Of a stretch of 64,000 nt of DNA, positions 25,327 through 40,564 are shown in pieces. The DNA comes from Patescibacteria group bacterium UBA926 (GTDB taxonomy: Bacteria > Patescibacteriota > Doudnabacteria > UBA920), in contig DBDS01000002.1 of NCBI GenBank assembly GCA_002293685.1, positions 31,742 through 95,741 on the forward strand. The letters are read 5' to 3'. Each line of letters opens with the position of its first letter. Position 1 is the stretch's first letter. Below the pieces are notes generated by a model that saw only the letters and a program-made list of their open reading frames with translations, was not told the DNA's origin and made no database searches. The translations under genes and the position numbers were made by a program.

Positions 25327-26604
25327 CTACTTCTGATAGTCGTGCATTGTGAGCTGTGCCTCTACTTGTTTGATACTTTCAATAACAACAGCAACAACAA
25401 TCAACAATCCAGCACCACCGAAAGTCATAGCCTGAGTTCCTGTCCAAGACTGAACAATAAACGGTAATACAGCAATTAGACCTAAGAACAAAGAGCCTGG
25501 TAAAGTAATGCGGTTCAATACTTTGTATAAGTAATCGGCAGTCATTCGACCTGGACGGATACCAGGAACAAAACCACCGCTGCGTTGCATGTTTTCAGAT
25601 ACTTCATCAGGGTTGATAACAATATTTGTGTAGAAGAAAGTAAACATTACAACCAGTACGAAGTAAGCTACACCGTACCAAATTCCTTGGTTATTGGTAA
25701 ATTCAATTGCTTTCTGAGCCCATTCAGCAACCAAAGGAGTTTTTGCATTTACAAAGAACTGCGCAATTATGGCTGGGAATAACAATAAGGAAATTGCAAA
25801 AATAATTGGAATTACACCGGCTTGGTTCAGGCGAAGTGGTAAATGTGAACTAACTCCGCCAACCTGCCTGTCCCCTTGCATACGCTTAGCATAAGTTACC
25901 GGAACATTACGCTGAGCTTCCGTCACCAGAACAACTCCGATAATTACCAATAATCCAGCAATCGCGAAACCAATCAAAGTTGGTAGCTGACTCGGATCAT
26001 ACAATTCAATGAATGAGCCGATTGAAGTTGGGATTTGAGCAACAATACCTGCGAAAATGACCAAGGAAATACCGTTACCAATTCCATATTCAGAAATAAT
26101 TTCACCAATCCACATAACAAGCATCGTACCTGCAGTCACAGCCAATAGAGTTAAGAACCATTGGAAAGGACTAAATACACCAAGCAATTCTGCACCACCC
26201 TGGCTTTGTAATAAGCGGATAGTTCCAAAACCAGATAGAATCGCTAAAGGAATAGTTAAGAAACGAGTATATTGGTTGATCTTCTGACGACCAGCTTCTC
26301 CATTCTCTTTCTGTAATTCTTTTAGAGCAGGAATAATCATTGTTAGCAACTGCATAATGATCGACGCGGTAATATAGGGACCGACACCAAGAAGTGCAAT
26401 TGAGAAGTTACTTAGACCACCACCAGAAAAGATGTTTAGTAAACTGAGGAACTGATTGCCTTCAAAGAAAGAGCGAAGCCCTTCGACACTGATTCCAGGA
26501 ATTGGGATATGAGCTAAAACACGAGTCATTAACAACAAAATCAAAACCATGAAGATTTTCTTCCGAAGGTCTTTAGTTTTCCAAATTAAGCTGAGTTTAT
26601 TCAT
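25327..26604 (-). CDS. secY: preprotein translocase subunit SecY
   Basis: Ten-TM SecY sequence; lies directly downstream of rplO. Confidence 0.95.
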   Translation of the reverse strand: MNKLSLIWKTKDLRKKIFMVLILLLMTRVLAHIPIPGISVEGLRSFFEGNQFLSLLNIFSGGGLSNFSIALLGVGPYITASIIMQLLTMIIPALKELQKENGEAGRQKINQYTRFLTIPLAILSGFGTIRLLQSQGGAELLGVFSPFQWFLTLLAVTAGTMLVMWIGEIISEYGIGNGISLVIFAGIVAQIPTSIGSFIELYDPSQLPTLIGFAIAGLLVIIGVVLVTEAQRNVPVTYAKRMQGDRQVGGVSSHLPLRLNQAGVIPIIFAISLLLFPAIIAQFFVNAKTPLVAEWAQKAIEFTNNQGIWYGVAYFVLVVMFTFFYTNIVINPDEVSENMQRSGGFVPGIRPGRMTADYLYKVLNRITLPGSLFLGLIAVLPFIVQSWTGTQAMTFGGAGLLIVVAVVIESIKQVEAQLTMHDYQK

Positions 26605-26626
26605 ATATTGATATTATACACATAAA

Positions 26627-26731
26627 GTCATCCTGAGCGAAGTCCACCTAAATCTCGTAGAGATTTTGAACGGACGAAGCGAAGGATCTCATTTTGAGAT
26701 CCTTCATCCCGTAAGCGGGATTCAGGATGAC
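26627..26731. repeat. family-1 palindromic element (composite, nested palindromes)
   Basis: gtcatcctgagcg...ggattcaggatgac termini; inner gaaggatctc/gagatccttc and aaatctc-gta-gagattt. Confidence 0.65.
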
Positions 26732-26742
26732 ATTGTATTCAT

Positions 26743-27177
26743 TTATTTAACTGAACCGCCAGCCGCTTCAATAGCAGTTTTTGCGGTAGCTGAAGCTGGT
26801 ACTTTCACAACAAGTTTCTTTTTGAGTCCACCCTTAAGTAGTTTTACTCTACCAACAGTGTTGGCGATAATACCATGCTTTTTAAGAGTTGAGATTGTAA
26901 CTTCATCACCATCATTGAAAGCATTTAGCGCATCAAGTTTGATAGCTGTAGCATTTTCGTGAATGCTCTTGAAACCACGACTCTTTGGAACTTGGCGAAC
27001 TAATGGTTGACGACCACCTTCGAAAGCCGCTGGTGATTTGGAATGACCAGTACGAGACTTTTGTCCTTTTGCTCCACGAGTAGAATAGGTTCCATGACCA
27101 CTTCCAAGACCACGGCCGACAACTTTGCGTCGCTTTGTGGATTTCGGATGACGTTTTAAATCATGTAATTTAATCAT
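26743..27177 (-). CDS. rplO: 50S ribosomal protein L15
   Basis: GRGLGSGHGTYSTRGAKGQKSR motif. Confidence 0.95.
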   Translation of the reverse strand: MIKLHDLKRHPKSTKRRKVVGRGLGSGHGTYSTRGAKGQKSRTGHSKSPAAFEGGRQPLVRQVPKSRGFKSIHENATAIKLDALNAFNDGDEVTISTLKKHGIIANTVGRVKLLKGGLKKKLVVKVPASATAKTAIEAAGGSVK

Positions 27178-27188
27178 ATATTTTATGT

Positions 27189-27245
27189 TGTCATCCTGAA
27201 CGCAGTGAAGGATCTTTTAGATTCTTCGCTTCGCTCAGAATGACA
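27189..27245. repeat. family-1 palindromic element (canonical copy)
   Basis: tgtcatcctgaacgcagtgaaggatct...agattcttcgcttcgctcagaatgaca. Confidence 0.65.
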
Positions 27246-27250
27246 TTCCT

Positions 27251-27751
27251 TTACTTGCGGCTTGCCATTATTTCTTCTTTACTGCGCATCACCTTAAATG
27301 CTTCGAACGCAGCACGAACATTGTTAGTCTTGTTGTTTGAACCAATCATTTTACTGATTACGTTCTTTACACCAGCAAGGTCTAAAACTGAACGAACCGC
27401 ACCACCGGCGATTACACCAGTACCCTGACGAGCAGGCATCATCAACAATTTACTAGACTTATATTTAATCTTAACTTCATGAGGAATAGTATCTTTTACC
27501 AAAGGAACTGTAATCATGTTTTTCTTCGCAGCATTTACTGCTTTGTTTACAGCTTCTGTTACGTCCATACCTTTGCGAAGACCAATACCGATTTTACCTT
27601 TGTGATCGCCAATTACAACTAAAGCACGGAAACGCATACGCTTACCGCCACCTGTAACACGAGTTACACGTTTAATCTCAACCACTTTCTGGTCAAATTC
27701 ACGAGGTTGTTGAGGGCCACGATTATTCGGTTTTTTAGATTTCTTATCCAT
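27251..27751 (-). CDS. rpsE: 30S ribosomal protein S5
   Basis: GGGKRMRFRALVVIGD and dsRBD/S5 C-terminal domain. Confidence 0.95.
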   Translation of the reverse strand: MDKKSKKPNNRGPQQPREFDQKVVEIKRVTRVTGGGKRMRFRALVVIGDHKGKIGIGLRKGMDVTEAVNKAVNAAKKNMITVPLVKDTIPHEVKIKYKSSKLLMMPARQGTGVIAGGAVRSVLDLAGVKNVISKMIGSNNKTNNVRAAFEAFKVMRSKEEIMASRK

Positions 27752-27799
27752 AATTATCTATTAAATATTAAACTTTCTCGTTTGTTCAAGCACGAGGCA

Positions 27800-27862
27800 T
27801 TTTCCGAGGAACTTTGGAACCGTAGTCTACCTACGGTGACAAAGTTCCGAGGAAAATAACAA
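27800..27862. repeat. family-2 hairpin element
   Basis: ttccgaggaactttg-gaaccgtag-tctac-ctacggtgac-aaagttccgaggaaaataac. Confidence 0.6.
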
Positions 27863-27867
27863 AGTGA

Positions 27868-27936
27868 TTGGACAAACCCGAAGGGTGAAGTTTGGTTGAA
27901 AGTCTGAATTTACTTCAAACTGAGACCAAACGAACG
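27868..27936. repeat. family-3 structured element (copy 1 of 3)
   Basis: ttggacaaacccgaagggtgaagtttggttgaaagtctgaatttacttcaaactgagaccaaacgaacgag. Confidence 0.65.
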
Positions 27937-27949
27937 AGGGAGTTTCATC

Positions 27950-28306
27950 TTAAAATTGAAGTCCAGCTTCGCGAGCCGCTTCAGCTAATGCTTTAACACG
28001 ACCATGATATCGATAACCACCGCGGTCAAACACGACAGCTTTTACTCCAGCAGCTTGTGCCTTAGTCGCGATTTCCTTACCGACACTTTGAGCTTGAGCA
28101 GTTTTATCGCCAGTAGCTTTCAAGTCTTTAGTAGAAGCTGCTACCAAAGTTTTACCGGCCACATCATCGATTAACTGAACAACCATATGAGCATTAGAAC
28201 GGAACACGCTTAAACGAGGACGTTCTTGAGTGCCACTGATGACACTGCGAACACGACCCTTGCGGAGTTTATGCTTTAATTGTTTATGCTTCTGTAAATT
28301 AGTCAT
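27950..28306 (-). CDS. rplR: 50S ribosomal protein L18
   Basis: [20 protein letters not shown] motif. Confidence 0.95.
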
Positions 28307-28350
28307 ATATTATCACATATTAGATTATCGCAATTTTCATGGTTGAGGCG

Positions 28351-28440
28351 AATTCGCGAAGCCGGCGAGTACCGAGCGAGTCGTAGTAGAACTACGGTGA
28401 GCAAGGAACGGAGCCGGCGACAAAGAAGTCGCTCAAAGCC
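28351..28440. repeat. family-2 hairpin element
   Basis: gaattcgcgaagccggcgag...gagtcgtagtagaactacggtgagcaagg...gacaaagaagtcgc. Confidence 0.6.
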
Positions 28441-28498
28441 ACTTTGCAAGTCCGGACTTGCTCCGGGCTAAAAAGTGGCGGCCATGGAAATTGCGGCC

Positions 28499-29080
28499 CT
28501 ACTTTCCTACAGCTTTAACAACTTTACCAGCCTTGCGCAAAATATTTTCGTCGCTGTATCGAATACCTTTACCTTTGTAAGGCTCCGGCTTCTTCAACTC
28601 GCGAATATTTGCAGCAACTTGACCAACTAAATGTTTGTCGATGCTAGTTAAGGTAATTGTTGTTTGATACTGCTGAATAGTAACTTTAGCTGGTTGCTTT
28701 TCTGCCTTTACTTCTACGCCATCAGGGATTGGAAAATCGATTGGGTGAGAAAAACCAAGGTTCAAAACTAAATCTTTACCACGAACTTCTGCCTTAAATC
28801 CAACGCCTACTACATCTAGTTCTTTAGTGAAACCGGTGGTTAAACCATCTACCATATTCTGAATCAACGAACGGAACAAACCCCAAAGAGCCTTTTCGCG
28901 CTTATCTTCTTTTTTAGCAACGTCTACCAATACTTCATTGTCTTTGACTTCAACTTTTACTTTTGGGTGAATTTCCAAAGTCAAAGTACCCTTACTACCC
29001 TTTACGGTAAGTACGTTGTCTTTCAATTCAGCAGTGATGCCGTTAGAAAGAATTACTGGTTTTTTTCCGATTCTTGACAT
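28499..29080 (-). CDS. rplF: 50S ribosomal protein L6
   Basis: MSRIGKKPV start and two L6 domains. Confidence 0.95.
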   Translation of the reverse strand: MSRIGKKPVILSNGITAELKDNVLTVKGSKGTLTLEIHPKVKVEVKDNEVLVDVAKKEDKREKALWGLFRSLIQNMVDGLTTGFTKELDVVGVGFKAEVRGKDLVLNLGFSHPIDFPIPDGVEVKAEKQPAKVTIQQYQTTITLTSIDKHLVGQVAANIRELKKPEPYKGKGIRYSDENILRKAGKVVKAVGK

Positions 29081-29181
29081 AGTGTCGTTATTAAAACTGA
29101 ATAAATAATGTTATCAAAACTTTTCCGTTTGTCCAAGTACGGCACGGATTGGTCGGGCAAAGCCCGCCCATCGCGTTCAGG

Positions 29182-29244
29182 CCATTTTCCGAGGAACTCT
29201 GGAGCCGTACTTTAGTTACGGTGACAGGGTTCCGAGGAAAATAA
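29182..29244. repeat. family-2 hairpin element
   Basis: ttccgaggaactctg-gagccgtac-tttagt-tacggtgac-agggttccgaggaaaataac. Confidence 0.6.
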
Positions 29245-29252
29245 CGAAGTAA

Positions 29253-29322
29253 TTGGACAAACCCGAAGGGTGAAGTTTGACTGAAAGTCTGAATTTACTT
29301 CAGACTGAAGTCAAACGAGCGG
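29253..29322. repeat. family-3 structured element (copy 2 of 3)
   Basis: ttggacaaacccgaagggtgaagtttgactgaaagtctgaatttacttcagactgaagtcaaacgagcg. Confidence 0.65.
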
Positions 29323-29333
29323 TAAAGTTTTAC

Positions 29334-29726
29334 CTACCAAATCTGACAAACAACTTCTCCACCAACACGATCTTTGCGGGCTTGTTTGTCTGTTAATAAT
29401 CCTTTCGAAGTTGAAACAACTGTAATACCGAAGCCACCATTAGTGCGAGGAATCTTTCCAACTGGCATGTAGATACGTTGTCCCGGAGTGCTAACACGCT
29501 TGATACCGGTAATCACAGGACTGCCTGTTTGAGCATACTTAAGATTGACTTGGAGCATTTTCACACGTCCAGGCAATTCGTTCACGCCAGATAGAAAACC
29601 TTCTTCATGAAGAACTTTTGCTAAGCTGTGCTTAAACTTTGAGTATGGCATTACCAAATCTTGCTTGCCAGCTGCAAGCGCATTACGGATTCGGGTTAAC
29701 ATGTCGGAAATTGGATCGGTATACAT
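29334..29726 (-). CDS. rpsH: 30S ribosomal protein S8
   Basis: MYTDPISDMLTRIRNA start. Confidence 0.95.
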   Translation of the reverse strand: MYTDPISDMLTRIRNALAAGKQDLVMPYSKFKHSLAKVLHEEGFLSGVNELPGRVKMLQVNLKYAQTGSPVITGIKRVSTPGQRIYMPVGKIPRTNGGFGITVVSTSKGLLTDKQARKDRVGGEVVCQIW

Positions 29727-29742
29727 GATAGTTAGTTGGTTA

Positions 29743-29937
29743 TTACCAAGAGGCCTTTGTTACGCCAGGGATTTCTCCACGGCTTGCTAATTCTCTAAAA
29801 CAGATACGGCATAAAGAAAAATCTCTCATAAAAGCTGCTTTACGACCGCACTTCAAACAACGCCTGATTACTCGAGTTGAGAACTTCGGGTTTTTTAAAC
29901 TGCGATTAGCTTTTGCGATTAAGGATTTCTTTGCCAT
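29743..29937 (-). CDS. rpsN: 30S ribosomal protein S14, Zn-binding type (64 aa)
   Basis: [12 protein letters not shown]... with the CLKCGR...CRIC zinc ribbon. The true start is the internal ATG at 29935-29937; the 101-aa track ORF is an upstream artefact. Confidence 0.9.
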
Positions 29938-29974
29938 ATGGTTGCTTGCTAAAGCGGTTTCAAATTCGGGGCAA

Positions 29975-30045
29975 GTTCGAGGCATTTCCCGAAGGGCGCT
30001 GGAGCCGTAATAAATGTTACGGTGACAGAGCCCTGAGGGAAATAA
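29975..30045. repeat. family-2 hairpin element
   Basis: catttcccgaagggcgctggagccgtaataaatgttacggtgacagagccctgagggaaataacaaag. Confidence 0.55.
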
Positions 30046-30075
30046 CAAAGAAATTGTCCGAATTTGGAAGCGCGA

Positions 30076-30615
30076 TTAATCTTTAAATGGGAACTTCATT
30101 GCCTTTAATAAGGCGTATGCTGGTTCATCTTTTCCAGCTGTAGTTGCAATCGTGACTTGAAGTCCGAAAATATGTTCGATTGCATCTTGAGAGATTTCTG
30201 GGAAAACCATGTGTTCTTTTAGACCAAGGTTGTAGTTTCCACGACCGTCGAAACCTTTTCGAGATACTCCGCGGAAATCTTTCACGCGAGGGAGACCAAT
30301 GCTGATCAATTTATCTAAGAATTCGTACATTCTTTGTCCACGCAAGGTAACGGTCATACCAACCACTTGCTGTTCACGAACTTTAAATCCAGCGATAGAT
30401 TTACGAGCCTTAGTTTCAACTGGTGCTTGACCTGCCAACTTTGTGAAGTCCTTTTTCAAAGATTCCATGAAGCGGTTATCCTTAAGGTACTTACCCACCC
30501 CAATGTTGAGGTTGATTTGCTTCACTTTAGGAACGGCCATCACGTTAGTGTAACCGAATTGCTCTTTCAAAGCAGGTGCAATCTGTTTATTATATTGTTC
30601 TTGTAAACGATTCAT
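30076..30615 (-). CDS. rplE: 50S ribosomal protein L5
   Basis: L5 sequence, 179 aa. Confidence 0.95.
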   Translation of the reverse strand: MNRLQEQYNKQIAPALKEQFGYTNVMAVPKVKQINLNIGVGKYLKDNRFMESLKKDFTKLAGQAPVETKARKSIAGFKVREQQVVGMTVTLRGQRMYEFLDKLISIGLPRVKDFRGVSRKGFDGRGNYNLGLKEHMVFPEISQDAIEHIFGLQVTIATTAGKDEPAYALLKAMKFPFKD

Positions 30616-30636
30616 AAGTGTAATTAAATACTTCTA

Positions 30637-30963
30637 TTAAACAGCTTTACCGCTTTTCTTAGCAATGCGTTGCTTGGTTCCGTTCTCTAAAATTTCATAA
30701 CCAACGCGAGTTGGTTTACCAGAACTTGGATCGATCAACATTACTTTGGATGAGGACATAGGACTTGCAAAACTCACCTTTTGAGAAACGCGCTGACGAG
30801 TACCACGTGGACGTTCATACTTAGTGTGAACATTCACATTCTCGACAACAACTTTATGGTCATCAGGAAGAACACGCAAAACTTTTCCAGTCTTACCTTT
30901 ATCTTTACCTGATAATACCTTTACGGTATCGCCTTTCTTAATTTTGAGCTTTACTTGTGTCAT
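30637..30963 (-). CDS. rplX: 50S ribosomal protein L24
   Basis: KOW motif KKGDTVKVLSGKDKGKTGKV. Confidence 0.95.
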   Translation of the reverse strand: MTQVKLKIKKGDTVKVLSGKDKGKTGKVLRVLPDDHKVVVENVNVHTKYERPRGTRQRVSQKVSFASPMSSSKVMLIDPSSGKPTRVGYEILENGTKQRIAKKSGKAV

Positions 30964-30974
30964 ATGTTTTCTAC

Positions 30975-31063
30975 GTCATCCTGAGTCCCTCGACGAGCTC
31001 GGGATAAACTCCGCAACTATGTTTCGGAGCCTGTCCTGAGCCTGCGAAGGATTCGGCATGACA
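30975..31063. repeat. family-1 palindromic element (variant)
   Basis: gtcatcctgagtccctcgacgagctcggg...ggagcctgtcctgagcctgcgaaggattcggcatgaca. Confidence 0.55.
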
Positions 31064-31069
31064 AATTAT

Positions 31070-31441
31070 TTAAATAACTTCTGGTGCTAATGATGCAATT
31101 TTGCTAAATCCAGCATCGCGAATTTCACGAGGGATTGGACCAAAGATACGAGTACCTTTTGGTTCACCTTTTTCTTTATCAACTAATACACCAGCATTTT
31201 CATCGAAACGGATGTAAGAACCATCTTTACGACGAATTTCTTTTTTCGTTCGAACAATTACCGCGTAAATCTTATCACCTTTTTTTACTGAACTGTTTGG
31301 TGCAGCTTGGCGAACAGACCCAGCAACAATATCTCCAACTCGAGCATAACGGCGTTTATTTTTTCCGTTCACGCTAAACAAGTTGACGACCTTGGCGCCA
31401 GTGTTATCTGCGATTTTAATGTAGGAACGAATCTGTAACAT
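31070..31441 (-). CDS. rplN: 50S ribosomal protein L14
   Basis: [10 protein letters not shown] motif and L14 fold. Confidence 0.95.
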
Positions 31442-31455
31442 AAATTTTGATTAGT

Positions 31456-31516
31456 TGTCATCCTGAACGCAGTGAAGGATCTATGGTTGAGATTCTTCGC
31501 TCCGCTCAGAATGACA
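31456..31516. repeat. family-1 palindromic element
   Basis: tgtcatcctgaacgcagtgaaggatct...gagattcttcgctccgctcagaatgaca. Confidence 0.65.
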
Positions 31517-31531
31517 GAGGTCAATTATTAA

Positions 31532-31774
31532 TTATACCTTCTTAAGTACAACGAATCTCTTGTCTTTGCTAATCGGACGACTTGATTCGATAATAACTTT
31601 ATCACCAATCTCACAAGTGTTTTCTTCGTCGTGTGCTTTGTAGCGGTAAGACTTAGTGTAGCTCTTGTGGTATTTTGGATGACGCTTAACTAAATCAACT
31701 TTAACAACAACGGTTTTATCCATTTTGTTAGAGATGACTGTTCCTGTAAGTTGTTGTTTAGTAGCTGTTGTCAT
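31532..31774 (-). CDS. rpsQ: 30S ribosomal protein S17
   Basis: S17 OB-fold sequence. The start is the internal ATG at 31772-31774 ([11 protein letters not shown]...); the track ORF is extended upstream. Confidence 0.9.
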
Positions 31775-31812
31775 ATAAATGTCTTGTCGTTCTGACACGT
31801 ACACCGCAGAAC

Positions 31813-31886
31813 GAGTAGAAGAATCTCTTAACAAGGGATCCTTCGACTCGGCCTTCGGCCTCGCTCAGGACGACACTTAAGTGTCG
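31813..31886. repeat. family-1-related partial element
   Basis: gaagaatctctt...gatccttcg...ccttcggcc...ctcaggacgacacttaagtgtcg matches the right half of the 36682-36761 element. Confidence 0.5.
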
Positions 31887-31887
31887 A

Positions 31888-32070
31888 TTAATTTGCTCTT
31901 AAGAAAGTTAGAATTCGAGCGATATCCTTACGAACAATTGAAAGTTGATTGGTGTTCTTAACCTGCCCCAGCTTTACTTTCATTCTGAGGTTCTCACGCT
32001 TCTCCTGCAAAGAAACTAGTTCTTTGTGAAGATCTTCAATAGGTTTTTTAGATAGGTCTGAATACTTCAT
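31888..32070 (-). CDS. rpmC: 50S ribosomal protein L29
   Basis: L29 helical hairpin MKYSDLSKKPIEDLHKELVSLQEKRENLRMK... Confidence 0.9.
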   Translation of the reverse strand: MKYSDLSKKPIEDLHKELVSLQEKRENLRMKVKLGQVKNTNQLSIVRKDIARILTFLRAN

Positions 32071-32104
32071 ATTAGTGTTATTAAACAAGCGAGAAAGTTT
32101 AGAG

Positions 32105-32512
32105 CTATTGTTTGATTAAGAATTTAGTCTTTACTGGAAGTTTGTGGGCAGCGAGTCTCATCGCTTCACGCGCTGCAGGTTCAGTAACTCCATCCATTTC
32201 GAATAGAATACGACCCTTTTTTACAACAGCTACGAAGTGAGAAACTGCACCTTTACCACTACCCATCACAGATTCATTACCATGATCAGTAATTGGCTTA
32301 TCAGGGAAAATCCGAATCCAGATCTTACCACCACGCTGTACACTGCGGGTCATGGCACGACGAGCTGCTTCAATTTGGCGAGCAGTAACGAAACGGCCTT
32401 CCATCGCTTTTAGAGCGAAGTTGCCGAACGCAATGCTGTTACCAGAAGTAGCCTTACCTTTGTTATGACCGCGATGATGTTTGCGGTGTTTGACTTTCTT
32501 TGGAATTAACAT
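32105..32512 (-). CDS. rplP: 50S ribosomal protein L16
   Basis: [15 protein letters not shown] start. Confidence 0.95.
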
Positions 32513-32525
32513 ATGTTTATTAGTC

Positions 32526-32576
32526 TGTCATCCTGAGCGCAAGCAAGAATTTTTTCTTGGCTGTGCTCAGAATGAC
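32526..32576. repeat. family-1 palindromic element
   Basis: tgtcatcctgagcgcaagcaagaattttttcttggctgtgctcagaatgaca. Confidence 0.65.
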
Positions 32577-32599
32577 AGCGGATTGATAGATGATTAAAC

Positions 32600-33253
32600 T
32601 TACTTGGTCTTATTCTCGAATACGTCGCCACGATAGATCCACACTTTGATTCCGATTGTTCCGTAAGTTGTGTGAGCAGTAGAACGAGCAAAGTCGATAT
32701 CAGCGCGTAAAGTATGAAGAGGAATCTTACCGGCTGACAAATGTTCGGTACGAGCAATTTCTGCTCCGTTCAGACGACCACCGATTGCAACCTTTACACC
32801 CTTCGCGCCTGCTTGCATAACTTGTTCTAACGCTTGCTTCATGAGTCTACGGAAAGCAACACGACGTTCGATTTGCTCAGCGATTCCGTTTGCAATAACT
32901 TGCGCATGTAAGTTGATATCGCGATCTTTAATCTCTTCGATATTAACCTTGAGTTCGCTCTTAATCTTTAGTTGTTGCTTCACTCGCTTCTTTAACTCTT
33001 CGATACCTGCGCCACCTTTACCGATAATTAAACCTGGTTTGGTGGTGTGAACTACGATAGTAATTGTACCGTCGTTGAGGCGTTCGATGTCGATACGAGA
33101 AAGTCCCGCTTTACGCAAGTGCTTTTCAAGGTATTCACGAATCTTGATGTCTTCGTGCAATTGAGCAACATAGTTGCCCTTTGAAAACCACTTGGACTTC
33201 CAAGTATCGGTAATCTTTAAACGAAATGAAGTTGGATTAATCTTATGTCCCAT
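32600..33253 (-). CDS. rpsC: 30S ribosomal protein S3
   Basis: MGHKINPTSFRLKITDTWKSKWF plus KH and S3-C domains. The start is the ATG at 33251-33253. Confidence 0.9.
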   Translation of the reverse strand: MGHKINPTSFRLKITDTWKSKWFSKGNYVAQLHEDIKIREYLEKHLRKAGLSRIDIERLNDGTITIVVHTTKPGLIIGKGGAGIEELKKRVKQQLKIKSELKVNIEEIKDRDINLHAQVIANGIAEQIERRVAFRRLMKQALEQVMQAGAKGVKVAIGGRLNGAEIARTEHLSAGKIPLHTLRADIDFARSTAHTTYGTIGIKVWIYRGDVFENKTK

Positions 33254-33271
33254 AATTTGAGAGGTGAATTC

Positions 33272-33400
33272 TGTCATCCTGAACGCAGTGAAGGATCTTT
33301 ACTTGAGATTCTTCTCGGAGTTTATCCCCGCGCAGGCGGGGACTCAGAATGACAGTTAGTGGAGATCCCTGCTTTCGCAGGGACGGCACAAAGTGCCGAT
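33272..33400. repeat. family-1 palindromic element plus adjacent extra hairpin
   Basis: tgtcatcctgaacgcagtgaaggatct...ccccgcgcaggcggggactcagaatgaca, then ggagatccctgctttcgcagggac. Confidence 0.6.
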
Positions 33401-33404
33401 TAAA

Positions 33405-33971
33405 TTACTTTTGTAAGTTTTCTGGAGAAGTTTTTACTTTAGAATCAGTCGCTTCGTTTTCGCGGTGAACTTCTTTCACTTTAGGTTCAGGCTTAAGTTT
33501 AGAAACAGATTCAGCTTCAGCTTTACCAAGTTGACCTTCTTGAGTCTGGATTGGTTCAGCTTTCTTCTTAGCCTTTGGAAGCTTAGCAGAACTTTTCGGT
33601 TTTGCATCGCGCTCTTCAAGCACTACGTTCACATGTGCCATTTTGCGTCGGATAACGAATGCGCTACCACGGGCTCTTGGGAACATACGCTGAAGTACAG
33701 GACCCATGTCAGTTGTAATACTCTTGATAAATAATTGCTCACCTTTTAATGAAAAATTATTCTCAGCATTTGCTACAGCCGAACGCAATAATTTGGATAC
33801 CATTCCAGCAGCCTTTTTATTGGTGAACTGGAGTTGAACCAAAGCGTCTGCAACGCGCATGTTCTTCACCAAGTTTGTAACTAGGCGAATCTTGCGAGGA
33901 GAGATGCGGAGATTGCGTGCATGAGCTCTCACTTGAGGCTTGTTATTCGGTTGTGCGACTTTTTCTGCCAT
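33405..33971 (-). CDS. rplV: 50S ribosomal protein L22 with long C-terminal K/E-rich extension
   Basis: L22 core (RISPRKIRLVTNLVKNMRVADALVQLQF) plus about 70 extra C-terminal residues. Confidence 0.9.
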   Translation of the reverse strand: MAEKVAQPNNKPQVRAHARNLRISPRKIRLVTNLVKNMRVADALVQLQFTNKKAAGMVSKLLRSAVANAENNFSLKGEQLFIKSITTDMGPVLQRMFPRARGSAFVIRRKMAHVNVVLEERDAKPKSSAKLPKAKKKAEPIQTQEGQLGKAEAESVSKLKPEPKVKEVHRENEATDSKVKTSPENLQK

Positions 33972-33982
33972 ATGATTTCATC

Positions 33983-34044
33983 GTTATCCTGAGCACAGCG
34001 AAGGATCTTTCTAGAAAAGACACTTCACAGCACTCAGCATAACA
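33983..34044. repeat. family-1 palindromic element (variant)
   Basis: gttatcctgagcacagcgaaggatct...cacttcacagcactcagcataac. Confidence 0.5.
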
Positions 34045-34052
34045 TTACATTA

Positions 34053-34331
34053 TTATTTTCCTGCCTTTTGTTCCTTCGCAAGTTTACCACCGTGACCGAT
34101 GAACTTACGAGTCGGAGCGAATTCGCCCAACTTATGTCCCACCATGTTTTCTGTAACGAAAACTTCGGTGTGCTGTTTGCCATTGTGTACGAGGAAAGTA
34201 AAACCAACCATTTCTGGGGCAATGGCACAAGCTCGTGACCAAGTCTTGATGCGATCGCCAGGTTTGCCGGCAAGCACTTTCTTGAGTACACGAGGATCGA
34301 TGTATGGACCTTTTTTTAAACTTCTAGACAT
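34053..34331 (-). CDS. rpsS: 30S ribosomal protein S19
   Basis: [19 protein letters not shown] start. Confidence 0.95.
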
Positions 34332-34354
34332 ATATATAGATAAATTTTCTATCC

Positions 34355-34415
34355 TGTCATCCTGAACGCAGTGAAGGATCTATAATTGAGATTCTTCGCT
34401 CCGCTCAGAATGACA
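34355..34415. repeat. family-1 palindromic element
   Basis: tgtcatcctgaacgcagtgaaggatctataattgagattcttcgctccgctcagaatgaca. Confidence 0.65.
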
Positions 34416-34430
34416 GAGAGAATTGTATAA

Positions 34431-35273
34431 TTAACGCTTCTTCACGCGACGCTTAACAATAAACTTACCAGACGGTTTCTTCTTATCGCGGGTTTTCACA
34501 CCGAGCGCATGCTTACCCCAAGGAGTCTTAGGATATTTCAAACCGATTGAGTTACTACCTTCACCACCACCATGAGGGTGATCTACTGGGTTCATAACTT
34601 TACCTCGAACGCTTGGTCTCCATCCCATGTGGCGCTTACGACCAGCTGTTCCGATTCGTACGTTCATCCAGTCTGAGTTAGACATCGAGCCGATTGTAGC
34701 GCAAGCAGTTTCGCGAACTTTACGGATTTCACCAGAAGGAAGTTTAAGGAATGCATAACCACCTTCTAAGTTTTGCAACAACACACTAGCACCTGCACTG
34801 CGAGCTAACTTACCACCATGACCAGGAATTAATTCCACATCATGGATGAAGCTTCCAACTGGAATGCTTGCAAGTGACATTCTGTTACCAGGATGGATTT
34901 CGGCTGTTTCACTATACACTACTTTATCGCCAACTTTTAAGCCAGCAGGTGTTAAGATGAAACGCTTAACTCCATCGTTGTAAGTAATAAGAGAAATAAA
35001 TGCGGTGCGAGTTGGATCGTATTCAACTGTTTTCACTGTACCAGGAATGTTCTTTCGGTCGGCACGGTTGAAATCAACAATACGAACTTTCTTGTTAGCA
35101 CCACCACCACGGTGTCGAACAGTAATCTTACCAGAGTTATTACGACCGGCGTTCTTCGCTTTGCTCATTATCAAAGACTTCGGAGTTTTCTCAGTCTTTT
35201 TTAAAACGGAATAATCGGTCACACTTTGCTTGCGACGTCCCGGTGTAGTTGGTTTGTATACTTTTACTGCCAT
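34431..35273 (-). CDS. rplB: 50S ribosomal protein L2
   Basis: L2 sequence with GRNNSGKITVRHRGGG. Confidence 0.95.
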   Translation of the reverse strand: MAVKVYKPTTPGRRKQSVTDYSVLKKTEKTPKSLIMSKAKNAGRNNSGKITVRHRGGGANKKVRIVDFNRADRKNIPGTVKTVEYDPTRTAFISLITYNDGVKRFILTPAGLKVGDKVVYSETAEIHPGNRMSLASIPVGSFIHDVELIPGHGGKLARSAGASVLLQNLEGGYAFLKLPSGEIRKVRETACATIGSMSNSDWMNVRIGTAGRKRHMGWRPSVRGKVMNPVDHPHGGGEGSNSIGLKYPKTPWGKHALGVKTRDKKKPSGKFIVKRRVKKR

Positions 35274-35274
35274 A

Positions 35275-35356
35275 TTGTTAGTTAGTAGTGGGTAGATTGT
35301 AGTGAGCAGGATACAGGAATGTTCTATATTCTACTTACTACAATCTACTTACTAAT
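35275..35356. repeat. intergenic inverted repeat (gtagattgtagt / actacaatctac)
   Basis: 12-bp perfect IR in the rplW-rplB spacer. Confidence 0.45.
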
Positions 35357-35764
35357 TTAGGTAGGTTCTACTATATTAATCTTCTTACTGTCTTTGGTTA
35401 AGGTAATCATAGCTTTCTTGAAACCGCTGCGTTGTCCAACTTTACGACCGAATGTACGGCTCTTGCCTTGGACTTGAATCATGTTAACGTTGGCAACTTT
35501 TACACCATACATTTTTTCAACCGCGCGACGAACTTCGATTTTGTTCAACTTACCATAAACAGTGAAAATGTATTGATTGAAACGATCTACGAAACCAGCT
35601 TTTTCAGAAATTCTTGGAACTATTAAACCTTTGTTACCAAGACCACTATGAGGCACGTCTAACATCGCAGGAGCTTCAGCTTCTTTTTTCGGTTCATCAG
35701 ACGCAGTAGTAGTTTCTACCTTGATTTCGTCTTCTGTATTTTCTTTTTTAGAAAATAATGCCAT
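35357..35764 (-). CDS. rplW: 50S ribosomal protein L23 with N-terminal acidic extension
   Basis: L23 core KIEVRRAVEKMYGVKVANVNMIQVQGK; about 40 extra N-terminal residues. Confidence 0.9.
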   Translation of the reverse strand: MALFSKKENTEDEIKVETTTASDEPKKEAEAPAMLDVPHSGLGNKGLIVPRISEKAGFVDRFNQYIFTVYGKLNKIEVRRAVEKMYGVKVANVNMIQVQGKSRTFGRKVGQRSGFKKAMITLTKDSKKINIVEPT

Positions 35765-35781
35765 GTGGGTTAGTTAAGGGT

Positions 35782-35901
35782 TGTCATTCCTGGGACCGAG
35801 TTCGAGAATCGAACGAGGTAACCGGGAATCTATTAATTAATATGTTGCTCTAGTGGATCCCCGGTTCTCATCTCGCTTCGCGAGCTGAGCCCAGGGACGA
35901 C
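35782..35901. repeat. family-1 palindromic element (long variant)
   Basis: tgtcattcctgggac...gagcccagggacgac termini with inner hairpins. Confidence 0.55.
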
Positions 35902-35904
35902 TAC

Positions 35905-36663
35905 TTACGCAGTCAATTTCTTATCAGCAACTGCTTTCTTAGGAGTTTCTTTCTGTTCAGAGTTCCCTGATAGCCCGCGCGACTTCGTCGCTTGTGGCTT
36001 CTGGGACGACTGCTCCGCAGTCGCTTTAAGATAAGTTTTTTCGATTACTGGTAGGCTATCTTTTAGAATAAACATACTATCAGCTTTGAGAATATCGGTA
36101 ACATTTAGACTTGTGGCTAGAGTTGTAGTAACAGCTTGTAAATTACGGGAAGCTCGGACTAAAGAATCATCTTTCTTTGGAAGAACAAGCATTTGCCTTT
36201 TGCCCAAAATATCCATCTTAGATTGAAACGCTTGCATGAACTTAATAAATTCTTTGGTCTTCGGTGTTTCTAAATTCACACCTTCGACAACAATCAAGCG
36301 ACCATCTTTTGCTTTATCCGAAAGGGACATAAACAAAGCTTTAGTCTTAGCTTTCTTGTTAATCTTGAGCGACCAGTTGCGGTCTGAGCGAGGTCCGAAA
36401 GTGACTCCACCATGTCGCCACAATGGGCTACGAGTAGAACCAGCACGAGCTCGTCCAGTACCTTTTTGGCGCCAAGGCTTCTTACCACCACCAGATACAT
36501 CGCCGCGGGTCTTAGTGTGAGCCAAACCTTTACGAGCGTTGTTTGCTTGAGCACGAACCGCTTCGGCTAGCAAGTGCAAAGATGGCTTAACAGCAAAGAT
36601 TTGATCGCTAATTTCGATCTCGCCAGTGCTTTCCGCGTTCTGATTGTAAACTTGAATTTTCAT
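35905..36663 (-). CDS. rplD: 50S ribosomal protein L4 with C-terminal extension
   Basis: L4 core plus about 45 aa K/A/E-rich tail. Confidence 0.9.
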   Translation of the reverse strand: MKIQVYNQNAESTGEIEISDQIFAVKPSLHLLAEAVRAQANNARKGLAHTKTRGDVSGGGKKPWRQKGTGRARAGSTRSPLWRHGGVTFGPRSDRNWSLKINKKAKTKALFMSLSDKAKDGRLIVVEGVNLETPKTKEFIKFMQAFQSKMDILGKRQMLVLPKKDDSLVRASRNLQAVTTTLATSLNVTDILKADSMFILKDSLPVIEKTYLKATAEQSSQKPQATKSRGLSGNSEQKETPKKAVADKKLTA

Positions 36664-36681
36664 CTGTAAATAAAATTATTA

Positions 36682-36761
36682 TGTCATTCTGAGGCGACAG
36701 CCGAAGAATCTCTTTGAGAGATCCTTCGTCCCTTCGGGACTCAGGACGACACTTCGTGTCG
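36682..36761. repeat. family-1 palindromic element (variant)
   Basis: tgtcattctgaggcgacagccgaagaatctctttgagagatccttcgtcccttcgggactcaggacgacacttcgtgtcg. Confidence 0.6.
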
Positions 36762-36762
36762 T

Positions 36763-37431
36763 TTACTTTTTCTTCTTAGTTTCTACAACTTCTTGGAATA
36801 ACGGTTTAGTAACTCCGGTTGTAGATATTTTTACCATTCCATTTGGGTGTCCTGGTACAGCGCCCTTAACAAGAATTAAACCTTTATCTGCGTCTACGTC
36901 TACAATCTGTAAGTTCTTAACAGTAACTTGGGAATTGCCCATGTGACCAGCCATGCGGCGGCCTTTGTTAACGTGTTGTGGATAACGAGAACCGATAGAA
37001 CCAACACTGCGAGGCTTATCGTGACCATGACTTCCAGGGAATCCAGCAAAGTTATGACGCTTCATAACACCAGTGAATCCTCGGCCCTTCATAGTACCGG
37101 TTACGTTAATAATTTCTCCAACTTCGAAAGTAGAAACATCAATCTTTTGGCCAATTTGGAATTCGCTAGAATTTTCTAGGCGGAATTCTACAAATTTACC
37201 GAAAGTTCCAAGATCTTTTGAGTGACCAGTCTTCGCCTTGTTTGAATGACGACTTCCTGCCACTTGAGGACTGACACCAACCTGAACGGCATTGTAGCCA
37301 TCTTTAGTTTCGCCAGTTTTGACTTGAGTTACCACAATTTCTGGAGCTTTCACAACAGTAACTGGGATTACTTCGCCGTTTTCGGCAAAGTACTGAGTCA
37401 TATTTAATTTCTTACCTACAATAAATTTCAT
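36763..37431 (-). CDS. rplC: 50S ribosomal protein L3
   Basis: MKFIVGKKLNMTQYF... The start is the ATG at 37429-37431; the track ORF is extended upstream. Confidence 0.9.
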   Translation of the reverse strand: MKFIVGKKLNMTQYFAENGEVIPVTVVKAPEIVVTQVKTGETKDGYNAVQVGVSPQVAGSRHSNKAKTGHSKDLGTFGKFVEFRLENSSEFQIGQKIDVSTFEVGEIINVTGTMKGRGFTGVMKRHNFAGFPGSHGHDKPRSVGSIGSRYPQHVNKGRRMAGHMGNSQVTVKNLQIVDVDADKGLILVKGAVPGHPNGMVKISTTGVTKPLFQEVVETKKKK

Positions 37432-37557
37432 ACAGTTTTGATTGGTCCATATCTTGGTCGCAAATGCGGCAAGCCGCCCTGCTCCGCGTTCGTACTGGCA
37501 AAGCCAGATACTCACTCGCTAAAGAAATAGGGACATCACTTTCATAAATAATTGTTT

Positions 37558-37621
37558 TGTCATCCTGAGGCCAAAGGCCGAAGGATCTCGAATGAGATTC
37601 TTCGCTTCGCTCAGAATGACA
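37558..37621. repeat. family-1 palindromic element
   Basis: tgtcatcctgaggccaaaggccgaaggatctcgaatgagattcttcgcttcgctcagaatgaca. Confidence 0.65.
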
Positions 37622-37764
37622 TGAAAATAAAAAAATGTGGCTACTCACCACATAAAAACAAGTCATAAGGCCGGAGGCCATGCTTTGCTTATATTTGGCG
37701 AATAGTTATCTGAATCGCCAAGCTTTTTGGGCTTTTGCGGTTCAGAACCAACTCACTCTAGTAT

Positions 37765-38088
37765 TTAACTCATTTTAATTTCTACATCAACCCCAGCTGG
37801 AAGGCTTAAGTTGGTGAGAGAATCGATGGTTTTAGGCGTAGCTTCTGTGATATCGATCATACGCTTGTGTGTGCGCATTTCGAACTGTTCACGGCTATCT
37901 TTGTGCACGAAAGTTGAACGCAATACAGTGTATTTGCGCTTCGCGGTCGGCAAAGGAACTGGTCCCGAAATGGTTGCCCCAGTGCGCTTAGCTGTTTCAA
38001 CGATCTGCTTTGCGCTTTGATCAATTAACTTGTGATCGTACGCGCGGATCTTGATGCGAATTTTCGGCTTGTGTTCGCCTTTTTCCAT
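37765..38088 (-). CDS. rpsJ: 30S ribosomal protein S10
   Basis: [16 protein letters not shown] motif. The probable start is the ATG at 38086-38088 (MEKGEHKPK...); the track ORF starts at an upstream TTG. Confidence 0.9.
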
Positions 38089-38180
38089 AAAATGAATTGA
38101 CAATATGCTTGTTTCTCGCTTATTTATGCGTTAAACAGCAATTAAAATTGCTTAGCTACTTAGCTAGCAAACTAAGACCA

Positions 38181-38209
38181 ATTTTATCTGATATTTCAAC
38201 TAATGTCAA
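38181..38209 (-). promoter_or_regulatory. sigma70-type promoter for the S10 operon (TTGACA-N17-TAAAAT)
   Basis: On the minus strand: catTTGACAttagttgaaatatcagaTAAAATtgg; a leader hairpin cagcaattaaaattgc lies downstream. Confidence 0.55.
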
Positions 38210-38244
38210 ATGTTTTTTAAAGAAAATCGTTGTTTTTGTATAGG

Positions 38245-38273
38245 TTTGACAAAAAGTGCTATAAATAGTATAA
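38245..38273 (+). promoter_or_regulatory. perfect-consensus sigma70 promoter TTGACA-N17-TATAAT
   Basis: gtTTGACAaaaagtgctataaatagTATAATgtg, about 35 bp from and divergent to the S10 promoter. Confidence 0.7.
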
Positions 38274-38309
38274 TGTGTAAAGTAAATTTCAGTATCTATG
38301 GAGGATATA

Positions 38310-38734
38310 TGTTGAAAAGTATCGTATTTGGAGGCATGAGCAGCCAAGAGTTTGTAATCGTCTACACTATTATGAATTCAAGATGTGTCTTTACACAAGC
38401 TGTGCCGCGCAACAATTGCATTACCATAAATTGGGCCGAAGAAATTATCGGAGAGATTATGGATAACGAAAAGCGTAGATATGACCGATTTTATAACTTA
38501 CTGATTATCAGGAAGCATCGGCCATTCGTACCTGTTCACGAGTCAAGGCCTCATCTGGAGTTTTGCGAAGTGATTAGCAAGCTTGAAGATAAGCCCGATC
38601 ATTCCACTGATTTCAAACACACCCGATTCCCCGATCAACTTCGCGAAGTTTTCAATGGGTTGATACCGAATAACGTGAAGCAGAAATCAAAGATGGTCGC
38701 TTCAGGATTCGGACAAAAGATCCATTCTTGGTAA
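38310..38734 (+). CDS. orphan 141-aa hypothetical protein
   Basis: GGAGG 6 nt upstream of the ATG. Preceded by the consensus promoter and followed by a strong terminator. No recognisable domain. Confidence 0.55.
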
Positions 38735-38767
38735 ATTTCAGGATTTCCTCAACGATAACTAATTAGA

Positions 38768-38793
38768 AGAGCCGCTCCCCGGCTCTTTTTTAT
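38768..38793 (+). terminator. rho-independent terminator
   Basis: agagccg-ctccc-cggctct followed by ttttttatt. Confidence 0.7.
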
Positions 38794-38832
38794 TATCCCA
38801 ACAAAAAACTCCCCAATTTCTGGGGGAGTTTT

Positions 38833-38863
38833 TAAGATCCTTCGGCTTCGCCTCAGGATGACA
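38833..38863. repeat. solo right arm of a family-1 element
   Basis: taagatccttcggcttcgcctcaggatgaca. Confidence 0.45.
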
Positions 38864-38866
38864 TAG

Positions 38867-40048
38867 TTATTTGTTGATTTTAACAACAACACCTGCACCT
38901 ACAGTTCGGCCACCTTCACGGATAGCGAACTTACCTTTTTCTTCCAAAGCGATCGGAGTGATCAACTTTACGTCGATGGTAACGGTGTCACCAGGCATAA
39001 CCATTTCTTGGCCTTCTGGCAAGATTACTTCACCAGTCACGTCGGTTGTACGAACGTAGAACTGTGGCTTGTAACCCTTGAAGAATGGAGTGTGACGTCC
39101 ACCTTCTTCTTTGGTCAAGATGTAAACTTCAGCAGAGAACTCAGTGTGAGGAGTGATAGAACCAGGCTTAGCCAAAACTTGGCCGCGCTCAACTTCTTCT
39201 TTCTTAACACCACGGAGCAATAGACCAGCGTTGTCACCAGCCATACCCTTGTCGAGCTGCTTGTTGAACATTTCAACACCAGTTACAACGGTCTTTGAAG
39301 TAGGTTTGATACCAACAATTTCAACTTCTTCGTTGATATTGATAACACCACGTTCGATACGACCTGTAACTACAGTACCGCGACCTTCAATTGTGAAGAT
39401 ATCTTCGATAGGCATTAAGAAAGGCTTATCGGTTTCGCGGGTTGGTTCAGGGATGAAAGTATCCAATGCTTCTACAAGCTTAAGGATAGTTTCTTCGTTT
39501 GCAGCATCTCCTTCGAGAGCTTTCAACGCAGAACCACGGATGATAGGAGTTTCAGCTCCTGGGAATTCGTACTTGCTTAGAAGATCACGAATTTCTTCTT
39601 CCACAAGATCCAAAAGTTCTGGATCGGAAACTTGGTCTACCTTGTTCATGTAAACAACGATAGAAGGTACACCTACCTGACGAGCGAGCAAGATGTGTTC
39701 GCGAGTCTGAGGCATAGGACCGTCTGCAGCTGATACTACAAGAATCGCACCATCCATTTGAGCAGCACCGGTAATCATGTTTTTGATGTAGTCGGCGTGA
39801 CCTGGACAGTCAACGTGAGCGTAGTGACGCTTGTCGGATTCGTATTCGCTGTGTGAGGTATTAATAGTAATACCACGAGCTTTTTCTTCTGGCGCGTTGT
39901 CGATTTGGTCGTAAGCCTTAGCTTTTGCCTTACCAGACTTCGCAAGCACAGTAGTGATAGCAGCGGTCAAAGTTGTCTTACCATGGTCAACGTGGCCGAT
40001 GGTTCCCACATTCAAATGGGGCTTTGAGCGATCAAATTGTTCTGCCAT
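38867..40048 (-). CDS. tuf: elongation factor Tu
   Basis: [23 protein letters not shown] and NKVD G-domain motifs; full-length at 393 aa. Confidence 0.97.
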
Positions 40049-40295
40049 TTGATGCCTTTCGAGCTATAAAAAGTTTTCAATTCTTGTCCCGAGATACCCT
40101 CGCTCCTTCCCCTATCGATGCGAGGAAAAAGAGAGGGTTTCTCTTTTTTTCACGTAGGAATCCAGAAACAAAAAGAGGTGAATTTATAGCGGTTAATTAT
40201 TATTTACCGTTATGTGCCGAAGTCGTTTGGCCAAGTTCGATACGAGCTTACTCGGGCCAAGCCCGAGTATCGCAAGCAGGAAAAAGTTGAGCAAG

Positions 40296-40335
40296 TTGCG
40301 AGCCGTACTAATAGTACGGTGAGCGACTAGCGGAA
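40296..40335. repeat. family-2 hairpin element
   Basis: gcgagccgtactaatagtacggtgagcgactagcgg. Confidence 0.55.
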
Positions 40336-40351
40336 ACTTTTGACAAAGAAA

Positions 40352-40422
40352 TTGGGCAAACCCGGAGGGCGAGTTTGATTGAAAGTCTGAATTTACTTCA
40401 GACTGAGATCAAACGAGCGACG
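40352..40422. repeat. family-3 structured element (copy 3 of 3)
   Basis: ttgggcaaacccggagggcgagtttgattgaaagtctgaatttacttcagactgagatcaaacgagcg. Confidence 0.65.
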
Positions 40423-40564
40423 AGGTACATACGATTATAAAATTGGCGGCCGCAAAGCGCGCCAATCAATAAGTATTCTAAGTCTTTTTACGTATCGCGT
40501 CAAGTTGCCAACCAGCCGGAAACGTGCCACAATGTAGGCATCATACACATAGGGGGTATTATAT

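Follow-up and report, generated by a model that had tools for sequence, protein, structure and literature searches.

The ribosomal-protein gene cluster of Patescibacteria group bacterium UBA926 raises the question of what a strongly structured, repeated element is doing in the spacers between its genes. We analyzed 64,000 nucleotides (nt) of contig DBDS01000002.1 (hereafter the window), a region that comprises the str, S10, and spc ribosomal-protein cluster with tuf and secY in the normal S10-spc gene order. A first-pass annotation had described an element of about 70 nt ("family 3") in three copies, each directly 3′ of another hairpin ("family 2"), and had taken the two together as a composite of about 150 nt under selection for RNA secondary structure. 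Our results show that family 3 is the optional 3′ domain, made up of hairpins P4 and P5, of one modular element of 118–215 nt. The single-strand fold of this element is under selection, and the element is an insertion that is polymorphic between near-identical genomes and lies at different sites in different genomes. We consider it rather probable that it represents a new family of non-autonomous, modular, structure-dependent interspersed repeats, similar to BOX, ERIC, and REP repeats, that is inserted in the housekeeping-operon spacers of a Saccharibacteria-like lineage of the candidate phyla radiation (CPR).

Read from 5′ to 3′, the element consists of CGTTTGnnCAAGnnCGAGG, the long family-2 hairpin, GACAAAGnnATTGGnCAAAC, P4, P5, and a 3′ end that pairs with the 5′ end. 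This terminal pairing, which had been missed earlier and which sets the length of 118–215 nt, forms a closing stem of ~11–14 bp (P1); families 2 and 3 were rightly joined into one element, but neither 70 nor 150 nt is its size. P1 is always paired, yet its sequences are unrelated between sub-families (AAACTTTCTCG, GAAGTCAGATTTTT, CAATTTTCATGG, and GCGGTTTCAAATTCG). P2 is a stem with conserved purine-rich junctions (CAAG-NNC-GAGG ... GACAAAG-NN-ATTGG), and P3 is a rod with symmetric tandem G.A loops and the tip CCGTA...TACGG; P2 and the P3 rod together correspond to the family-2 hairpin. P4 is a small G+C hairpin, and P5 is a two-tier hairpin. The G.A pairs form symmetric 2x2 loops (CC-GA-GG opposite CC-GA-GG), and the internal loop of P5 places UGAA opposite GAG. 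The 5′ GTTTG can be paired in two ways that fit the data equally, either to the CAAAC that precedes P4 or to the CGARC that follows P5. Type A copies contain P1 to P5, type B copies lack P4, type C copies consist of P1, P2, and P3, and one copy in the relative L013 has P1 and P5 only. The full architecture is common to the window and to metagenome-assembled genomes (MAGs) labelled Saccharibacteria and Doudnabacteria.

The three family-3 copies are present as reported, on the + strand at 27868–27936, 29253–29321, and 40352–40419. Their 26-nt core (GAAAGTCTGAATTTACTTCAGACTGA) was matched three times with at most one mismatch, compared with 0.00 matches expected from 100 shuffles, and the 5′ part (ATTGGRCAAACCCGRAGGG) was matched three times compared with 0.03 expected. 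The outer stem is perfectly paired in all three copies (GTTTGGT/ACCAAAC in copy 1, GTTTGAC/GTCAAAC in copy 2, and GTTTGAT/ATCAAAC in copy 3); two adjacent pairs vary from GT/AC to AC/GT to AT/AT, which bears out the double compensatory substitutions that had been noticed there. A wobble that works only on the plus strand had also been claimed and was found: at the eighth outer pair, copies 1 and 3 have T.G, and copy 2 and nearly all relatives have T-A. The family-3 copies were additionally found to contain an inner stem (AGTCTGAA/TTCAGACT, loop TTTAC), with a single C.A mismatch in copy 1 (TTCAAACT). The compensatory G-C pair ascribed to copy 3 proved to be an error: the change of P4 from CCCGAAGGG to CCCGGAGGG affects the loop only (GAA to GGA), and the flanking A-T pair is also lost. 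The statement that family 3 always lies directly 3′ of a family-2 hairpin is true of these three copies but not as a general coupling. The family-2 hairpin occurs without family 3 at 25203–25320 and 29954–30072 and with a variant 3′ domain at 28331–28492 and 47526–47685, and a family-3 hairpin occurs without family 2 in L013 (6416–6495).

The conservation of the fold was quantified in an alignment (A3) of nine sequences from six genomes under a hand model of 54 pairs; A3 was trimmed by hand, with an optional nested hairpin taken out of four sequences and one bulged base out of four others. In this alignment, 95.0% of the 480 pair cells were paired, compared with 33–45% when the partners were slid. 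Both sides changed in 30 of the 54 pairs, compared with 14.1 in shuffles, and none of 500 shuffles reached the observed values. The P2 variants CAC/GTG, TGC/GCA, TAC/GTA, and TTC/GAA illustrate the pattern. P5 covaries when taken alone: among 13 distinct sequences, including the variant forms, 184 of 192 cells were paired, and eight of 15 pairs covaried, one of them with five pair types. An independent RNAalifold prediction from the first trimmed set recovered P1, the base of P2, part of P3, P4, and P5, but not the middle of P3. The folds of individual copies ranged from −72 to −100 kcal/mol, with z values of about −8 to −9 for copies w1 and w3 against shuffled controls. A U.G pair is conserved in nine of nine sequences, and tandem G.A loops and purine-rich junctions are found in all copies. 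These results confirm that a single-strand fold is kept, by covariation across 9–13 copies in several genomes. The further claim that the selected molecule is RNA is not established, because the fold and its strand asymmetry are also obtained with DNA energy parameters and there is no evident + strand promoter.

The folding strand is the + strand of the window, as the wobble had implied. The A3 helices contain 33 G.U cells and seven A.C cells on the element strand, this strand is more stable than its complement by 7–24 kcal/mol in 12 of 13 copies (the exception is a decayed copy), and the junctions and internal loops, with their symmetric tandem G.A loops, are all purine-rich on it. DNA parameters give the same strand asymmetry (−40.8 versus −36.0 kcal/mol). 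Strong folding was also obtained for the − strand, the sense of the mRNA, at −64 to −87 kcal/mol (z −6 to −8). All substantial ORFs in the 64 kb are on the − strand, and the operon copies are therefore antisense to the genes; rplF, rpsE, and tuf are themselves − strand genes, so the placement of the element as a leader "upstream" of them fails. A promoter scan showed no enrichment (nine sites found versus 9.8 expected) and no site consistently 5′ of the copies on the + strand; an outward −35-like TTGGAC lies in the element end of copy w2 only.

Of 11 loci compared, 10 have the element on the strand with negative GC skew and with the minority of genes (the exception is L002). In the window, the GC skew is uniformly negative on the + strand throughout, and a ParB gene is located near the right end (60302–61300), which suggests that the origin lies beyond the 64 kb. 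The ParB position, the uniform skew, and the − strand location of all genes suggest that replication runs with the genes; therefore, the folded strand is probably on the leading-strand template.

To what extent the element belongs to its sites was addressed with relatives collected via L18 and S5 homologues, which are MAGs labelled Candidatus Saccharibacteria or Doudnabacteria. Scanning genomes for the hairpin 21-mer TGAAAGTCTGAATTTACTTCA yielded only four loci, in three MAGs. The most informative relative, L032, is collinear with the window and 95–99% identical to it. Its rpsH–rplF spacer measures 10 nt compared with 253 nt in the window, and its rplR–rpsE spacer measures 27 nt compared with 198 nt; both spacers are likewise empty in L034, L030, and L031. 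L032 also carries the type C copies of the window. L034, which is ~90% identical, is without the operon type A and type B copies of the window, but a type A copy sits in its rpsJ–rplC spacer, at the very position held in the window and in L032 by a different palindromic repeat. Occupied and empty sites are patchy across L013, L015, L017, L029, L030, and L031, and other relatives have copies on the 3′ side of argS and upstream of a peroxiredoxin gene. In the MAG pair L002/L004, the element separates the rpsB start codon from a conserved upstream region and points in opposite directions in the two genomes. That upstream region (L002 1620–1650, L004 6480–6560) is a non-coding stretch, AARTCCTGTCRCTTTTGGCCAnCTGGC...GAAATAGAAGC, and may be an rpsB leader.

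The boundaries of the unit are clearest in L029, in which two copies at two sites are 98% identical with unrelated flanks. Their homology begins exactly at AAACTTTCTCG and stops at CGAGGAAGTTT. Among the four differences, two form one compensatory pair, one exchanges G-C for G.U, and one is in a G.A loop. Movement of whole alleles is also indicated: the stretch from w2 to w1 (27949–29081 versus L032 8842–9974) is 96.5% identical, compared with 98.6% and 99.0% on either side, a pattern suggesting that a recombination import may have carried both type A insertions in together and that homologous recombination is a further route by which alleles move.

A search with a covariance model derived from A3, which the first-pass annotation had proposed, found seven copies in the window. 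They comprise all three types (A, B, and C), and every one lies on the + strand. Three of them are type A. The first (w1, 27770–27945) is in the rplR–rpsE spacer (185.7 bits, E 7e-52) and folds as RNA with −72.3 kcal/mol (z −8.9). Its P1 is AAACTTTCTCG/CGAGGGAGTTT, P4 is at 27877–27885 (CCCGAAGGG), and P5 has its outer stem at 27890–27896/27925–27931 and its inner stem at 27901–27908/27914–27921. It is not found in the corresponding spacer of L032, L033, and L034. A 12-codon ORF (MKLPRSFGLSLK) begins at the − strand edge of w1 (27946–27908) and has a counterpart in the L015 copy. Neither w2 nor the L029 copies contain it, and a small-peptide reading was rejected, the ORF being probably fortuitous. 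The second (w2, 29116–29331), also matched by the model, is in the rpsH–rplF spacer, with P4 at 29262–29270, the P5 outer stem at 29275–29282/29309–29316, and the inner stem at 29286–29293/29299–29306; the site is empty in relatives (10 nt in L032 and L034, 9 nt in L013). The third (w3, 40215–40427) is upstream of tuf by position only and lies just past the terminator of the preceding − strand gene. Its P4 is at 40361–40369, and its P5 has the outer stem at 40373–40379/40408–40414 and the inner stem at 40384–40391/40397–40404.

Some copies contain an extra small G+C hairpin (CTCGGGCnAAGCCCGAG) nested at differing junctions. In w2, it occupies ~29145–29181 between P2 and P3, with the core GTCGGGCAAAGCCCGCC at 29152–29168; in w3, it spans 40249–40269 (core 40251–40267), again between P2 and P3, and in L002 (~1758–1795) it sits on the opposite side of P3. 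In the window, it does not occur outside the elements. This hairpin may be an expansion segment or a nested mini-insertion.

The two type B copies have no P4. One is located in the rplF–rplR spacer (28331–28492; 99.1 bits, E 6e-27) and combines the P1-P2-P3 core with a variant P5, GCCACTTT...AAGTCCGGA CTTGC TCCGGGCT...AAAGTGGC; L032 has this copy with a single nucleotide changed, and L034 lacks it, with a spacer of only 1 nt. The other (47526–47685; 82 bits, E 5e-22) is upstream of rpsL by position, after the terminator of the preceding − strand gene, and has the P5 inner stem AGTCCAAA/TTTGGACT with the loop CTTGC. The type C copies are found between the secY stop codon and the secY terminator (25203–25320; 72.3 bits, E 3e-19) and in the rplE–rpsN spacer (29954–30072; 70 bits, E 2e-18). 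L029 has a copy at the same after-secY site, with the fold kept through compensatory changes, and same-site copies to the rplE–rpsN one occur in L029, L031, and L032. The 101-aa rpsN ORF (29743–30048, − strand) is over-extended into this element; the conserved start ATGGCAAAGAAATCC at 29937 gives the usual 64-aa S14. Elements start 2–6 nt past the upstream stop codon or just past a terminator, and an A+T-rich stretch of 16–60 nt separates them from the next start codon. In L029 (3388–3445), the A+T-rich stretch between the element and rplF holds a short tandem repeat, ACGAATTTGTACGAATTTACGAAC.

Inserted repeats are present in approximately two-thirds of the S10-spc operon spacers. At least seven other S10-spc spacers hold a second repeat family, a ~70-nt palindrome (TGTCATCCTGAACGCAGTGAAGGATC ... 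GATTCTTCGCTYCGCTCAGAATGACA), at 27178–27245, 31445–31516, 32515–32577, 33261–33359, 33971–34008, 34344–34415, and 37592–37621. This palindrome family occupies the rpsJ–rplC spacer at the position of the type A copy of L034, and the two families therefore share insertion hot spots. About 130 nt after rpsJ (~37640–37764, − strand) are conserved in L032, L034, and L013 and end in a terminator-like hairpin with the T run GTGGTGAGTAGCCACATTTTTTT, right before the repeat insertion site; this stretch could be an attenuator or an rplC leader. The window contains a single tRNA (61610–61691).

No known family accounts for the element. At gathering thresholds, Rfam 15 returned one tRNA only for the whole window; with E values up to 10, it gave no match on 40150–40480, and on 25000–35000 it gave only chance-level microRNA and leader matches (E 1.2–3.1, far below gathering). 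A metagenome scan with AGTCNGAATTTACTTCNRACT yielded 11 loci, all of which were chance matches without the surrounding element, viral contigs had no match for two element patterns, and phage and plasmid collections gave no blastn match. No report of the element was found in the literature on CPR/Saccharibacteria repeats and miniature inverted-repeat transposable elements (MITEs). Hammerhead and hairpin ribozymes and group II intron domain V were compared by eye and rejected, as they require junctions, or an upper helix, that the element lacks, and Rfam gave no match; GAGCCGUA...UACGGU does resemble the lower helix of domain V. A retron-like non-coding RNA was also rejected, the hairpin order being wrong on the folded strand and no reverse transcriptase gene being adjacent.

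The mobile-repeat reading is favored because copies are missing from the same spacers of a near-identical genome and are present elsewhere in relatives (by argS, the peroxiredoxin gene, and rpsB and in the rpsJ–rplC spacer); host genes do not need the element. Under this reading, the element would be propagated selfishly and non-autonomously, copying or insertion would need the folded single strand, and this strand would be recognized by a trans-acting enzyme encoded elsewhere. We judge a folded single-stranded DNA intermediate to be slightly likelier than an RNA one, because the transposed unit has no promoter and host transcription gives the complementary strand. Spread and homogenization may also proceed by homologous recombination or gene conversion via the highly conserved flanking ribosomal-protein genes. 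The orientation bias could result from the insertion mechanism itself or from better survival when the more stable strand is off the lagging-strand template. Apart from one pair, type A copies are only 76–90% identical to each other; recent bursts are therefore rare, and the family is old and constrained.

Several observations weigh against a mobile repeat. The sample is small (~25 copies in ~10 genomes), and the 76–90% identity of the type A copies, one pair apart, speaks for recent bursts being rare. Pfam scans of 40 window ORFs (64 kb) detected no transposase, integrase, or reverse transcriptase, and no copy of the element bearing an ORF was seen. There is no target-site duplication at the exact boundaries of the L029 copies or at the window copies compared with empty sites, and no terminal sequence is common to all sub-families; the usual signatures of transposition are thus absent. 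Occupied and empty alleles differ beyond the element, as the spacers are remodelled, and no clean insertion event is documented. Between the after-secY copies of the window and L029, almost all differences are compensatory, while the flanks are unalignable; this pattern fits a purely selfish model least and could reflect selection at the site itself for a host function. Finally, IS608 has its top strand on the lagging-strand template, and an IS200/IS605-like top strand would be expected there, whereas here the orientation appears to be the opposite.

The best-surviving alternative, which we regard as unlikely, is a family of small structured RNA genes or functional RNAs (a ribozyme, a guide, or a protein-binding RNA) on the + strand, antisense to the operons, with P1 as the closing helix and P4–P5 as accessory domains. 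It would account for the location of the purine-rich junctions and loops, the tandem G.A loops, and the G.U excess all on the + strand, for the variable sequence of a P1 that stays paired, as in many functional RNAs, and for the high conservation of the core between distant MAGs. The nearly all-compensatory differences of the after-secY copies point the same way. However, the unit of the 98%-identical L029 pair begins exactly at P1 and hence includes no upstream promoter, promoter-like sites are not enriched (9 versus 9.8), and host transcription yields the complementary strand. The copies are also dispensable in a 95–99% identical genome, and Rfam returned no ribozyme or small RNA match.

A related and doubtful possibility is that the element is an undescribed structured nucleic acid with an activity of its own. 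It could be a small catalytic or guide RNA of an unrecognized mobile system or a transposon moving as folded single-stranded DNA via an enzyme class not yet linked to such elements, and either could be CPR-specific. If so, its functional core would be formed by the conserved four-way junction together with the tandem G.A loops and the P5 loop, which is invariant (YUURC).

Quite improbable in our view is a cis element that benefits the host, as a REP/ERIC-like 3′ stabilizer or processing site, as a re-initiation aid joining stop and start codons, or as a site of topological function or protein binding in heavily transcribed DNA. In the mRNA, C.A mismatches would replace 33 pair cells and the conserved G.A loops would become U.C, even though the mRNA-sense strand does fold strongly and the fold is kept at shared sites across diverged genomes. 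The copies lie in or near highly expressed housekeeping operons, right after stop codons or terminators, which is in favor of this reading; nevertheless, they are present or absent between near-identical genomes, and another repeat family can occupy the same site.

It is very unlikely that the covariation is a mutational by-product of DNA palindromes, through template switching or gene conversion between arms, with no selection on the fold. Types B and C are essentially long imperfect inverted repeats, and gene conversion between copies is evident, as is a mosaic copy in which P1 comes from one sub-family and P3 from another. Correction between arms, however, would remove mismatches, yet the G.A loops, the U.G pair found in nine of nine sequences, and the purine junctions persist; moreover, P4 and P5 are local hairpins within one arm and covary by themselves.

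Scarcely credible is an autoregulatory leader upstream of rplF, rpsE, and tuf bound by an L7Ae/L30e-like protein, S4, or S8, a check proposed in the first-pass annotation: the copies cluster in the str, S10, and spc operons and have tandem G.A pairs, but the folded strand is not the mRNA sense strand, the same element occurs by argS, the peroxiredoxin gene, and rpsB and after secY, the copies are insertions missing from the same spacers of a 95–99% identical genome and not conserved at the same operon position in related genomes, and, by inspection of the folds and the alignment, neither the 2x2 G.A loops nor the internal loop of P5 has the 3-nt bulge that precedes the G.A step of a kink-turn (K-turn).

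CPR/Patescibacteria genomes are among the smallest and most compact known, yet about two-thirds of the ribosomal-operon spacers here hold repeats. This raises the questions of how selfish DNA persists and moves in a genome of ~1 Mb without a visible transposase and whether inserts inside the most highly expressed operons can be tolerated or used. The presence or absence of the element is a practical marker for separating genomes that are 95–99% identical. The locus also holds a caution for RNA-motif discovery, as strong covariation beside ribosomal-protein genes does not by itself imply a ribosomal-protein regulator.

Among known systems, integron attC sites share with the element a single strand that folds, a closing-stem structure that outweighs sequence, and conserved non-canonical features. 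The core sites of attC, RYYYAAC ... GTTRRRY, bound an imperfect palindrome at the 3′ end of a gene cassette. Here, the core sites are not in the right order (by inspection, the GTTTGnn...nnCAAAC motifs are reversed and one base off the consensus), there is no cassette flanking or integrase, the gene order is that of a normal S10-spc operon, and the internal sequence is highly conserved; this identity was rejected. The REP/BIME-RAYT and IS200/IS605 systems are similar in having a folded single strand that is recognized (as proposed here), no target duplication, and a strand or orientation bias. REPs, however, are ~35 nt long compared with 118–215 nt here, and the ends of IS200/IS605 form two separate sub-terminal hairpins without mutual pairing, whereas here the ends pair. 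No Y1/HUH or RAYT gene was found in the 64-kb window or in 20-kb pieces of relatives.

The element resembles MITEs such as Correia, RUP, and Nezha in its length class of 100–250 nt, inverted-complementary ends, non-coding nature, interspersed distribution, and insertion polymorphism. It has MITE-type traits, as it is short (118–215 nt), non-coding, multi-copy (seven in 64 kb), and polymorphic in insertion, but a classical MITE was rejected: only end pairing is conserved and not the sequence of a terminal inverted repeat, and no target-site duplication is detectable. Both terminal inverted repeats and target duplications are features of ERIC-type and RUP elements (PMC3184786), and the likeness to the ERIC/IRU repeats of enterobacteria is looser than that to BOX. 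With BOX of Streptococcus pneumoniae, compared by described features (the features of BOX, ERIC, and Correia are taken as reviewed in PMC3184786), the element shares small size, a non-coding and intergenic nature, multiple copies, and modularity. It also shares predicted stable stem-loops, locations in or near transcription units, the lack of its own transposase, and presence that varies between related strains. BOX combines the modules boxA, boxB, and boxC variably, as P1-P2-P3 is combined here with or without P4 and P5. The element differs from both BOX and ERIC in having no TA or other target duplication and in its multi-helix junction, conserved tandem G.A loops, strong covariation, near-uniform antisense orientation, and CPR host with a genome of ~1 Mb.

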